64,000 bases of DNA from Erysipelotrichaceae bacterium OttesenSCG-928-M19 (GTDB lineage Bacteria > Bacillota_I > Bacilli_A > JAJDGJ01), in contig JAJDGJ010000001.1 in NCBI GenBank assembly GCA_030265585.1, forward strand, positions 2,388 to 66,387. Reading direction: 5' to 3'. The notes below the pieces were generated by a model. The model was not told the origin of the DNA. It made no database searches and saw only the letters and a program-made list of their open reading frames with translations. Within the stretch, counting starts at the first letter, position 1, and each line of letters opens with the position of its first letter. A program made the position numbers and the translations under genes. Shown here one piece after another: positions 31,806-60,016 of this stretch.

Positions 31806-31941
31806 CTTATCACTCCTAATTTCACGATACTCATTATACACTAAAAGCGGATATTTGTCATTGATTATCAAATTGTTTACAAATTAAAAGTGTCTTTAAC
31901 ATTTTTTTGCATAAAAGACACTTTATCCTAATTTCTTTCTC

Positions 31942-33183
31942 TTATTTAAGATAACTTAAATGGTTATACAAAGGATACTTAGCTGTTAAATCTTCAATCA
32001 TGGCTTGAGCCTCTTTAATAATTGCTTCATCTTGATGATTTTTTAATACATTTACCATAACATTTGCCATTGTTTGAATATCAGCTTCACTAAATCCTCT
32101 TGTTGTAATAGCGGGTGTTCCAAGTCTAATACCACTAGTAGTAGCTGGTGGTAAACTATCATTTGGAATCGTGTTTTTATTAACTGTAATATAGACTTCA
32201 TCTAATACTTTTTCGGCTTCTTTTCCCGTAATATTAAAACTACTCTTAACATCTACTAACAATAAATGATTATCTGAGCCCCCGCTTACTAAAGTAGCTC
32301 CTAGTTTTTTTAATTCAGCAGCAAGAATTTGGTTGTTTTTAATAATTTGTTGTTGATACTTTTTAAATTCTGGTTGCAATGCTTCAAAAAAGCAAGCTGC
32401 TTTAGCACCAATGATATGCATAAGTGGTCCACCTTGAATTCCTGGGAAAACTTTTCCATCAATCTTTTTAGCATACTTTTCTTTACAAAGTATCATACCA
32501 CCGCGAGGTCCACGTAATGTTTTATGCGTTGTTGTTGTCACAAAATCAGCATATAATACTGGGTTTTGATGTAGCCCAGCCGCTACTAAACCTGCAATAT
32601 GTGCCATATCCACCATGAGATAAGCACCAACTTCAGCAGCAATCTCTTTGAATTTTTTAAAATCAATCGCACGTGGATATGCTGAAGCTCCTGCAACAAT
32701 CATTTTTGGTTTTTCTTTTAAAGCTATTTCTCTTACTTTATCATAGTCAATTAATTGCGTTTGTTCATCAACACCATAACTAACCACCTCAAAAGAGAAC
32801 CCTGAGAAGTTTAAAGGATGGCCATGTGTTAAATGACCTCCTTCATTAAGTGACATTCCCAATATCTTATCGCCATAATTTAACACACTTAAATAAACAG
32901 CCATATTAGCTTGTGAGCCTGAATGTGGTTGTACATTAACGTGTTCAGCTTTAAATAGTTCTTTAGCACGATCGATGGCTAATTGTTCAACTTCATCAAT
33001 AAACTCACAACCTCCATAATAACGTTTACCTACATAGCCTTCTGCATATTTGTTTGTTAAAATGCTACCAGCTGCTTCCATTACCTGATTACTAACTATA
33101 TTTTCTGAAGCAATCAATTCAATGTTTTTTCTTTGACGCATTAATTCTCTTTCAATACTCGCAAATAATTTTTCATCTCTCAT
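31942..33183 (-). CDS. glyA: Serine hydroxymethyltransferase
   Basis: [36 protein letters not shown]. Confidence 0.97.
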
Positions 33184-33202
33184 TTTTAAAACCCCTTTCC
33201 AA

Positions 33203-33243
33203 TAAAAAAAACTAGTCTATTAGATTACCCTAACAAACTAGTT
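33203..33243 (-). terminator. Attenuator terminator in the glyA 5' leader
   Basis: AACTAGTTTGTTAG-ggtaat-CTAATAGACTAGTT then TTTTTT on the minus strand, just before the glyA RBS. Confidence 0.8.
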
Positions 33244-33282
33244 ATAATGATGATTAAATCATTAAATCATGTTATTGTTAAC

Positions 33283-33357
33283 CTAACACTCAAAAACACC
33301 TACAACTGTAGATGAAGAAGATGTTAAGTTTGTTGTAAACATATAATTCTTTTTCAT
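33283..33357 (-). CDS. Putative Ser-rich leader peptide MKKNYMFTTNLTSSSSTVVGVFEC (24 aa)
   Basis: RBS AAGGTG 7 nt before ATG; four consecutive Ser codons TCT TCT TCA TCT; lies between the promoter and the leader terminator. Confidence 0.7.
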   Translation of the reverse strand: MKKNYMFTTNLTSSSSTVVGVFEC

Positions 33358-33377
33358 TAGCCATCACCTTTTGCGAA

Positions 33378-33406
33378 ATTATAACAAATATTTTTCTTTA
33401 TTTCAA
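33378..33406 (-). promoter_or_regulatory. Sigma-A promoter of the glyA leader
   Basis: TTGAAA-17 nt-TATAAT with TG extension. Confidence 0.8.
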
Positions 33407-33556
33407 GCTCAATTTTTATAATTAGTTAAAAAACTGAAATTTACTATTTTTTTATTTATCATAAAAGAGTATCTTAGTCTAACAATTGATAATAAAAATA
33501 GACAAATTGCACAAACATTTCGATTGCTTTTATGATATAATATTAATGGTGATATT

Positions 33557-34150
33557 ATGATTAGAAATGTCTACTTACTAACTGATGATTCAGAAAAAAA
33601 AGAAAAGCTAGTTAAATACTTAAATAATAATAATAAGTATGCTATTAGTATTGAAACTCTTAATAATGGAGTTTTACTTATCAAAGAAAATTATACTAAA
33701 TTCGAACAATTGGTTGATTATAATTATATCTATCAATTGTTTGCTAATGAGATTAAAACTGATTTATCTATCTTAATTGTTAATGATGGTATTTTTACTA
33801 ATTTAGATTATTTTGCTAAAGAGTTTCTGGTAAATACCTATTGTAATGTTTATGATGCCTCTGCTCTAGTCTATTATTGTTTTGTAAAGAATGATCACGA
33901 TTATATCATAGAGGAGTTTTATGATTATTTTAGTCGTTTAGATGAAGAGCTTGTTGAATCAGTTTATATGTTTTTAGATAATAATCTTAATAGTTTAAAA
34001 ACAGCTCGTGATTTATTTTTACATCGCAATACTTTAAATTATCGTTTAAGAAAATTTCATTATATTACAGGAATTGATATTAGAACGACACGAAGTGCTA
34101 GTTTAATTCACTCTTATCGAATTAGACACCACTATCGCTTTATCAAATAA
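33557..34150 (+). CDS. PucR/CdaR-family HTH regulator (short form)
   Basis: FLDNNLNSLKTARDLFLHRNTLNYRL..ITGID motif. Confidence 0.85.
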   Translation: MIRNVYLLTDDSEKKEKLVKYLNNNNKYAISIETLNNGVLLIKENYTKFEQLVDYNYIYQLFANEIKTDLSILIVNDGIFTNLDYFAKEFLVNTYCNVYDASALVYYCFVKNDHDYIIEEFYDYFSRLDEELVESVYMFLDNNLNSLKTARDLFLHRNTLNYRLRKFHYITGIDIRTTRSASLIHSYRIRHHYRFIK

Positions 34151-44012: not shown

Positions 44013-44120
44013 ATCTCATACCTAGTAAGATTTTTAAATATGTTTCTGACTTAGTATAAGAATACTTTACAGTTGCTAGGACAGTTTTAGATTTTCACTA
44101 AATTCCATATATAATCTACA
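44013..44120 (-). ncRNA. Compact cobalamin riboswitch
   Basis: GGAA..TTTAGTGAAAATCTAAA (T-loop hairpin), ACTGTCCTAGCAACTGTAA, AAGTCAGAAAC B12 box; L5 CCTAG is complementary to L13 CTAGG; upstream of cobU; TTGACA-18-TATAAT promoter at 44155-44126. Confidence 0.8.
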
Positions 44121-44297
44121 TCTAGATTATACTAAATATTAGGTAGATGTGTCAAATTAACAATTGCTGTTTTGAATAAACAAGTAAAGTTAAAATAATC
44201 AAATGTGTTAGTTATTTCACCACTAAATCTTTTTAATTTCTAATGCTTAAATTTTATTGCTTAATTCCCCTTAATTTTAGTGGCTTTTAAAAAGCTA

Positions 44298-59453: not shown

Positions 59454-59682
59454 TAAAAAAAGTCCCTTCCTTAGAAGCGACTAGCACGGTACCATTCTAA
59501 TTAATATCAAATTATTATTTGATATCATCTCTTTTTTGTAACGAGTATTCCCCGGGATAGTCTACTCTTAGTTCTCCTATCCAACTCCTAGAGTGTTCCC
59601 TTATAAACTTCTCTTAGGCTTTTCCAGCAACTAGCCCTCTCTTTAAGATACTATTTTTATAAGATTCTCTATTCACAGTTAT
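59454..59682 (-). promoter_or_regulatory. T-box riboswitch 2 (Asn specifier AAC)
   Basis: Stem I with AGAGA/GCTG loops, GGAACA specifier loop, AGTA stem II, CGTTA, AGAATGGTACCGTG T-box, terminator with U run. Confidence 0.9.
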
Positions 59683-59697
59683 TAATTATTCATTTGA

Positions 59698-59920
59698 AAT
59701 AAAAAAAACGCTTCCATCTAGAAACGTAAAGATACGCGGTACCATTCTAGTTCAAGCTTAGCTTGCCCTCTTTGTTGATAACGGATTCCATTCCGAGATA
59801 GTCTACTCTTAGTTCTCCTATCTAGCTCCTAGAGTGTTCCCTTATAAAATATTTTAGGCTTTTTCACCAACAGCCCTCTCTTTAAAAATAAGTTTTTATA
59901 AGAATCTCTATTCAATGCTT
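59698..59920 (-). promoter_or_regulatory. T-box riboswitch 1 (Asn specifier AAC)
   Basis: Near-duplicate of T-box 2; AGAATGGTACCGCG T-box, CCGTTA, terminator CGTTTCT..GGAAGCG with U run. Confidence 0.9.
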
Positions 59921-60016
59921 GAATGTATATTATCATAATAAAAAAATTAATGCAAGCTTTTTAATTTATTTAATGCTGATATATGGTATAATTAGATAGG
60001 AAAAGGATGATGAAAA

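Follow-up and report, generated by a model that had tools for sequence, protein, structure and literature searches.

Organization of the glyA locus

The window analyzed here is a stretch of 64,000 nucleotides from Erysipelotrichaceae bacterium OttesenSCG-928-M19 (contig JAJDGJ010000001.1). On its minus strand lies glyA, which encodes serine hydroxymethyltransferase and is preceded by a short open reading frame (ORF) with four consecutive serine codons and by an intrinsic terminator (Table 1). The genome of the window (G000) was compared with the only congeneric genome (G001) and with a confamilial genome from a sister genus (G002). The promoter, Shine-Dalgarno (SD) sequence, leader ORF, serine run, inner hairpin, and terminator are all present where a preliminary description of the sequence had placed them.

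Table 1. Features of the glyA leader and gene, in window coordinates
Feature	Position	Strand	Evidence or remark
Sigma-A-type promoter TTGAAA-17-TATAAT with TG extended -10	33378..33406	-	Score 11/12
Leader SD, AGGTGAT	33363..33369	-	Pairs with the 3' tail of G000's own 16S (contig C45), duplex -10.0 kcal/mol
Leader ORF, 24 codons, MKKNYMFTTNLTSSSSTVVGVFEC	33283..33357	-	ORF read
Four serine codons in a row (TCT TCT TCA TCT), predicted sensor	33310..33321	-	Sequence
Segment 1, predicted anti-antiterminator	33320..33330	-	Pairs with segment 2 (33291-33280) in ribosome-free RNA
7-bp hairpin over the last serine codons (33314-33297), then U5; candidate RNA-polymerase pause	33292..33314	-	
Predicted antiterminator	33218..33288	-	33288-33279 with 33227-33218, 33277-33265 with 33239-33228; AUGAUU/AAUCAU hairpin cap
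Intrinsic terminator, 14-15 bp stem (33243-33210) and U tract	33204..33243	-	-15.8 kcal/mol
glyA SD, GAAAGGGG	33192..33199	-	Sequence
glyA, serine hydroxymethyltransferase, 413 aa, ATG 33183	31942..33183	-	NCBIfam NF000586, 632.8 bits (cut-off 335)
Hairpin downstream of glyA, possible end of a monocistronic transcript	31887..31924	-	No score in terminator scan

The leader promoter is the best of six promoter-like matches in a scan of positions 33000-33800; the number of matches alone is no better than chance, because shuffled sequences yield 7.0 on average. Two terminator-like sites scored in the scan of the region, compared with a shuffle mean of 0.0, and the terminator ends 20 nt ahead of glyA. 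On the minus strand, no further promoter-like site scoring at least 9/12 was found between the leader promoter and glyA, and transcription of glyA must therefore pass the terminator. With a hairpin downstream of glyA and a separate promoter-like site for prfA (31861-31833), glyA is probably transcribed alone. The listed TTG start of prfA at 31871 overlaps that site, and the real start is probably an ATG located behind an AGGAG about 60 nt further on. An overlapping 25-codon frame beginning at 33367/33364 was not preferred as the leader, as its SD is weaker and too close (-5.9) and it contains no residue run. On the plus strand, a divergent CdaR/PucR-like HTH gene occupies 33557-34150; its assignment lies below all cut-offs, and it is absent beside glyA in the congeneric genome.

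The leader was also set against randomized sequences. When the G000 leader was dinucleotide-shuffled 20000 times, no SD-led ORF of 6-60 aa with SSSS appeared (7/20000 when no SD was demanded), and the corresponding test of SD and serine run in the congeneric genome gave 1/20000. The whole G000 leader folds with z = -4.65, none of 200 shuffles being equally stable. In the comparison of the leader fold with synonymous recodings, the values were 23/500 for G000 and 102/500 for G001, that is, the G001 fold is not unusual. Among the 80 terminator-bearing upstream regions of G000, only that of glyA has an SD-led short ORF with at least four identical residues in a row. The runs, SSSS in G000 and SSSSSS in G001, stand before GlyA, the enzyme that makes or uses the encoded amino acid, and nine of their ten codons are TCN, AGT being the commonest serine codon here.

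Conservation in the congeneric genome

The glyA leader of the congeneric genome comprises 39 codons (MNLDTVIEIKEIYKINTTCNFNTSSSSSSLDFLGSNKIA) with six serines in a row behind the SD AAGGAGG, and the GlyA that follows is 77% identical to that of G000. The parts, namely the SD-led leader, the serine run, the hairpin, and the terminator, come in the same order in both genomes, and the end of segment 2 carries the leader stop codon in both. TCTTCATCTA is the exact sequence common to the two leaders; elsewhere the peptides diverge, and their lengths are unequal. At the place matching the promoter, G001 reads TGnTATAAT, and the promoter scan gave no match on that strand. Its terminator is located 29 nt ahead of glyA, with a stem taken from folding (-13.0) and unscored by the pattern scan.

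The inner hairpin is kept, although two of its pairs have changed (C-G to G-C and U.G to U-A); U6 follows it, and an insertion of 3 nt in its loop preserves the frame and adds serine codons. The terminator stem is homologous, with two double-sided changes in its basal part (C-G to U-A and A-U to G-C), and the helix between segments 1 and 2 has an equivalent (L002 1350-1360:1404-1414). These compensatory changes were read off the predicted pair lists of two sequences and carry no covariation statistic; automatic DNA alignments place the two leaders inconsistently.

In glyA itself, 44 of 104 fourfold sites match between the two genomes (42%), compared with 37% expected from composition, which is near saturation. 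The neighbors of the gene also differ, being a CdaR-like regulator and prfA in G000 and yggS and a Cof hydrolase in G001. From this near-saturating divergence and the differing neighborhood it follows that the leader has traveled together with glyA. The run and the helices are conserved in the one congeneric genome (1/1) and not at the other confamilial glyA, that of G002 (0/1). Loss of the serine run in relatives had been named as an observation that would speak against serine control; in the congeneric genome, the SD-led six-serine leader, the inner hairpin, and the terminator are retained.

The leader in other relatives

The family and order of the window are represented by six genomes, three of which contain glyA. 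The gene was not found in G003-G005, and the glyA of G002 as well as a second glyA of G001 have no leader; because of these glyA-lacking genomes and leaderless copies, glyA is not required for serine throughout the family. The second G001 copy (L031 / L297, G001:C20) is 49% identical and is located near a cupin-sensor kinase-like gene, a response regulator, and a second folD.

Contig searches (80 of 517 from relatives and 80 of 475 from metagenomes) returned no glyA closer than 71% and no further leader. A third leader was found neither in 108 further loci (among them a duplicate, a paralog, and a mis-cut locus) nor in 67 metagenome glyA loci, 13 more having been left out as short. A class-wide pattern of serine codons, a gap, and the IASEN of GlyA, which sees two distance windows only, gave 38 matches in a first search of 401 genomes, distributed over 34 of them. 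Of the 30 places inspected, three were at glyA (G000, G001, and G202), and the G202 match proved to be the end of an upstream gene. The second search, of 400 genomes that were for the most part those of the first, gave one match in each of 28; a single match was at glyA and showed no leader. Another candidate, an SD-led ORF with SSS (L008), was rejected as it has no terminator and resembles the tail of an upstream gene.

In the sister genus, the 22 nt surrounding the start codon of glyA (L003 about 458-480) agree with the start of the G000 leader at 20 positions, which is the best match anywhere in G000; the next best reaches 18/22, and the best among called gene starts 17/22. GlyA begins with M-K-R-D in G002, with M-R-D in G000 and G001, and with M-K-D or M-R-D in several more distant loci. 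The G002 start pattern is the expected remnant of a deletion that joined leader codons 1-2 to glyA codon 2. We tentatively propose that the attenuator may have been lost in G002 by such a deletion, a reading that is unrooted.

Ribosome-position-dependent folding

To mimic a ribosome, the 5' portion of both leaders was masked during folding (13-nt mask; masks of 10 and 16 nt move the window of effective positions by one codon and leave the outcome otherwise the same). This check, which had been suggested beforehand together with folding of the unmasked leader, gives alternative structures that depend on the position of the ribosome in both genomes. The predicted antiterminator of G000 reaches -15.9 kcal/mol, with 7 of 500 shuffles equally good, and its 18-bp equivalent in G001 reaches -13.4 kcal/mol (4/500). 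The antiterminator of the preliminary description, in which 33286-33279 pair with 33244-33238, can be drawn, but when forced it attains only -6.1 kcal/mol, and this register was rejected in favor of the much stronger pairing in Table 1.

With the ribosome at codons 8-20 of the G000 leader, the energy gain of the antiterminator amounts to -7.7 to -9.7 kcal/mol, and it falls to 0.0 at the stop codon. In G001, the gain is -8.1 to -12.8 kcal/mol at codons 16-32 and -1.4 kcal/mol at the stop. Without a ribosome, the G000 RNA encloses the inner hairpin in a helix of segments 1 and 2 and forms the terminator. The 1:2 helix is predicted in both genomes, and the untranslated state favors the terminator clearly in G000 and by just 1.5 kcal/mol in G001.

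When the full G000 transcript is folded with the ribosome on the serine codons, the terminator is lower in energy by about 6-8 kcal/mol; leaders of ilvD, used as controls on the full transcript, reach +3.2 to +6.0 kcal/mol at best. Because the finished G000 terminator stays lower in energy, as in the ilvD controls, the switch must be kinetic. Three ilvD leaders of the lineage were tested and show a similar energy profile, with its peak on isoleucine and leucine codons.

Leader peptides and T-boxes in the lineage

Leader peptides of this design were sought throughout G000, where 405 of 944 called genes have free upstream DNA, 80 of them with a terminator and 24 with an SD-led short ORF. Besides the glyA leader, the scan found leucine/isoleucine leaders at leuA and ilvD and, ahead of a HisC-like aminotransferase gene, one rich in aromatic residues and histidine. 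Leaders that end in isoleucine, leucine, and valine runs, with a terminator and a predicted antiterminator, are present at all four ilvD loci (L206 in G000:C27, L205 in G001, L204 in G002, and L207 in G004). Leaders with leucine codons and a terminator precede both full-length leuA loci (L200 in G000:C6 and L201 in G002). The aromatic/histidine-rich, SD-led leaders read MDTLNVKLISNNFYFWYFQNDSVHHTILFSNTLR in G000 (G000:C9 about 250-1462, L195) and MLQVNLNHNNFSWYTIDSIHLDFYLFL in G002 (G002:C7, L194) and are followed by a terminator of -18.5, the HisC-like aminotransferase, a D-2-hydroxyacid dehydrogenase, and a membrane protein. They are candidates for an aromatic-amino-acid attenuator.

T-boxes, of which there are nine in G000 and 11 in G001, stand upstream of asnA and of synthetase-like genes, serS among them. 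The T-box that had been noticed before asnA in the window was recovered as an Rfam match at 59717-59924, and the identity of AsnA was confirmed by TIGR00669. It belongs to a tandem pair of T-boxes on the minus strand (59470-59924), and a tandem pair is likewise found on contig C21 of G001. A borderline cobalamin riboswitch match (31.6 bits, cut-off 31.5) lies on the minus strand at 44020-44151. The general statement that Firmicutes mostly use T-boxes for sensing amino acids holds here only for the synthetases and asnA, whereas ilvD and leuA use leader peptides. Labor is plausibly divided between T-boxes for synthetases and leader peptides for several biosynthetic genes.

Gene content and probable direction of the GlyA reaction

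Models for SerC and GcvT matched in none of five genomes each. In G001, which is 98% complete, no match to the SerA model and no full-length PF02826 match was found, only short PF02826 fragments. The SerA-model match of G000 is a D-lactate-dehydrogenase-like protein of 330 aa below all cut-offs and was rejected. Fhs is present in 5/5 and FolD in 6/6 genomes, and Pfl in G001 and G002; Pfl was not found in G000. Genes absent from G000 prove little, since this genome is 62% complete. Threonine aldolase is encoded in G000, and a serine dehydratase is also present.

A GlyA reaction toward serine is plausible because the gene set supplies glycine and methylene-THF, and the gene content fits a glycine-to-serine flux. 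The same direction had been proposed in advance from the presumed mode of control, and the pattern of genes (SerC, GcvT, and SerA unmatched; Fhs, FolD, Pfl, and threonine aldolase present) agrees with it. Threonine aldolase, and formate by way of Pfl, Fhs, and FolD, would here feed a GlyA reaction that turns glycine and methylene-THF into serine. It would be expected to make serine since induction on serine shortage is only sensible for a serine-producing step.

Proposed mechanism and alternative explanations

According to the folding predictions, a ribosome that reaches the stop codon would cover segment 2, upon which the terminator would form. A ribosome held on the serine region would instead cover segment 1 and free segment 2, which would pair over the 5' arm of the terminator, its loop, and the start of its 3' arm, so that the polymerase would read into glyA. 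In RNA that is not translated, the 1:2 pairing would lead to termination, clearly in G000 and marginally in G001.

The hairpin and U tract inside the leader ORF may serve as a pause that lets the ribosome load. A hairpin-stabilized NusG-type pause has been described as a hairpin 11-12 nt before the RNA 3' end together with a TTNTTT motif, and at B. subtilis tlrB such a pause allows time for leader translation (PMC12288461). The U run of G001 (TTTTTT) fits TTNTTT; that of G000 fails the motif, agreeing at 5/6 positions. NusG of G001 has the N-T pair of pro-pausing NusG, and nusG was not found in the incomplete G000. The hairpin and U run would fit a pause of this type.

Taken together, we infer, with a probability of about 0.8, that the leader is a classical ribosome-mediated attenuator, which would respond to the charging of serine tRNA and turn glyA on under serine shortage. 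This conclusion draws on two related genomes and on folding predictions. The serine-attenuator interpretation of the preliminary description is thereby supported, both by conservation in G001 and by the alternative folds in both genomes. Of the defining features of a classical attenuator, the SD-led ORF, the codon run, the terminator, and their conservation are seen in the sequence, and the mutually exclusive antiterminator is predicted by folding; a protector helix is predicted with a clear effect in G000 and a marginal one in G001, and the hairpin with its U run is a candidate for the synchronizing pause.

The leader may also be an attenuator that responds to a mixed or other signal, such as threonine together with serine or a general slowing over codons 8-20. 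The permissive window is about 13-17 codons wide and also contains threonine, valine, glycine, asparagine, and leucine codons; a Thr-Thr pair and a threonine ahead of the serine run occur in both leaders, within or beside this window, and the G000 leader has four ACA threonine codons. Mixed isoleucine/leucine/valine leaders also exist in the lineage before ilvD. However, serine forms the only run and the only exact sequence in common, and induction of glyA on low threonine would lack a clear metabolic logic, which makes a mixed signal rather unlikely. A stalling peptide of another kind is disfavored as well. In TnaC/SpeFL-type arrest peptides, a conserved motif ends at the stall site; the two glyA leader peptides share the Thr/Ser stretch only, and their lengths and C-termini differ (n = 2), which argues against a sequence-specific arrest peptide.

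Serine-specific attenuation has also to be weighed against a terminator/antiterminator switch that is independent of translation and controlled by a ligand or protein, in which case the ORF would be a by-product of a conserved RNA. Competing helices are indeed predicted, and as TCTTCATCTA doubles as the 5' arm of the conserved hairpin, its retention could be structural. Nevertheless, the SD, the frame, and the stop codon at the end of segment 2 are kept in both genomes, no Rfam family reaches its gathering score, and almost nothing else is shared in sequence, unlike in a ligand-binding aptamer. We regard such riboswitch-like control as very unlikely.

Even more improbable is nucleotide sensing as in pyrBI-type attenuation, a mechanism based on UTP-sensitive pausing, where a pause at the U run would couple ribosome and polymerase and make glyA depend on nucleotide supply. 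A hairpin followed by U5-U6 is found within the ORF in both genomes, and GlyA supplies one-carbon units for nucleotide synthesis in many bacteria. Between the stop codon and the terminator, however, there are 39 nt in G000 and 23-24 nt in G001, a distance at which a ribosome could not directly block the stem. Termination is favored when the ribosome stands at the stop codon, and the serine run would be left unexplained. Finally, a chance ORF with a leaky terminator that fixes glyA at a low level, suggested by the ready pairing of AU-rich RNA, promoter-like matches at chance level, and n = 2, is hardly credible in view of the shuffle results for both leaders, their retention despite near-saturated neutral divergence, and ilvD and leuA leaders of matching design.

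Comparison with known systems

The glyA gene is usually under the control of PurR, ZTP, or T-box elements. In the glyA leader, Rfam yielded nothing at the gathering score and only noise at the level of snoRNA (E 0.69-9.7); the models for ZTP, glycine, and THF riboswitches did not match, and the T-box covariance model (RF00230) had no match at glyA in G000 or G001. T-boxes also read tRNA charging and control a terminator; at glyA, sensing would be performed by the ribosome.

Classical leader-peptide attenuation is described for the enterobacterial trp, his, leu, thr, ilv, and phe operons (PMC1183508, PMC9413887). Like these attenuators, the glyA leader combines a short SD-led ORF, in which codons for the product amino acid are repeated, with predicted 1:2, 2:3, and 3:4 helices and a terminator before the enzyme gene. 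Unlike them, it carries a serine run, and its target is a reversible central one-carbon enzyme rather than a dedicated biosynthetic operon. The enterobacterial leaders have no sequence relation to the glyA leader, which matches no Rfam leader family, and the host of the latter is class-level kin of Bacilli.

Reports on Firmicutes describe a demonstrated leucine-rich leader-peptide attenuator at S. aureus ilv-leu (PMC5794164) and candidate histidine leaders in the B. cereus group, Eubacteriales, and Erysipelotrichales (PMC9413887) as well as before hisZ/hisS* in bacilli (PMC2965389). The glyA leader shares the design of the ilv-leu and his leaders, likewise in a T-box-rich phylum, and differs in amino acid and target. 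No serine or glyA case occurs in the passages on Firmicute leaders in these three sources, nor in those of PMC4833913. Serine limitation is sensed at B. subtilis sinR as a slowing of the ribosome at TCN codons (PMC3862929), the class to which nine of the ten run codons before glyA belong. The sinR codons lie inside the gene without a dedicated RNA, whereas glyA has a separate, terminator-coupled leader.

Our literature searches, to which most subscription papers were out of reach, returned no leader attenuator for serine or for glyA. Comparative surveys of attenuation have reportedly been made by Vitreschak in 2004 and by Lopatovskaya in 2010. The glyA leader thus likely represents a known mechanism with a new pairing of amino acid and target, that is, a serine leader on glyA.

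Implications

Considered jointly, the observations tip the balance somewhat toward a serine-specific attenuator of glyA in which serine hydroxymethyltransferase would act as a regulated serine-biosynthetic enzyme, making serine from glycine and formate in cells without a SerA/SerC route. The attenuator would be part of an E. coli-style leader regulon (serine, leucine, isoleucine/valine, and aromatic/histidine) beside the T-boxes of the synthetases in a Bacilli lineage, and the sister genus would have lost it through a deletion that joined the start of the leader to glyA.

If this holds true, serine would join the limited set of amino acids for which classical attenuators are known, and the physiological direction of a reversible enzyme could be read from its regulation. 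Moreover, the leader would constitute a compact, genetically encoded sensor of serine tRNA, and it would provide a natural case for how pausing synchronizes leader-peptide attenuation in Firmicutes.
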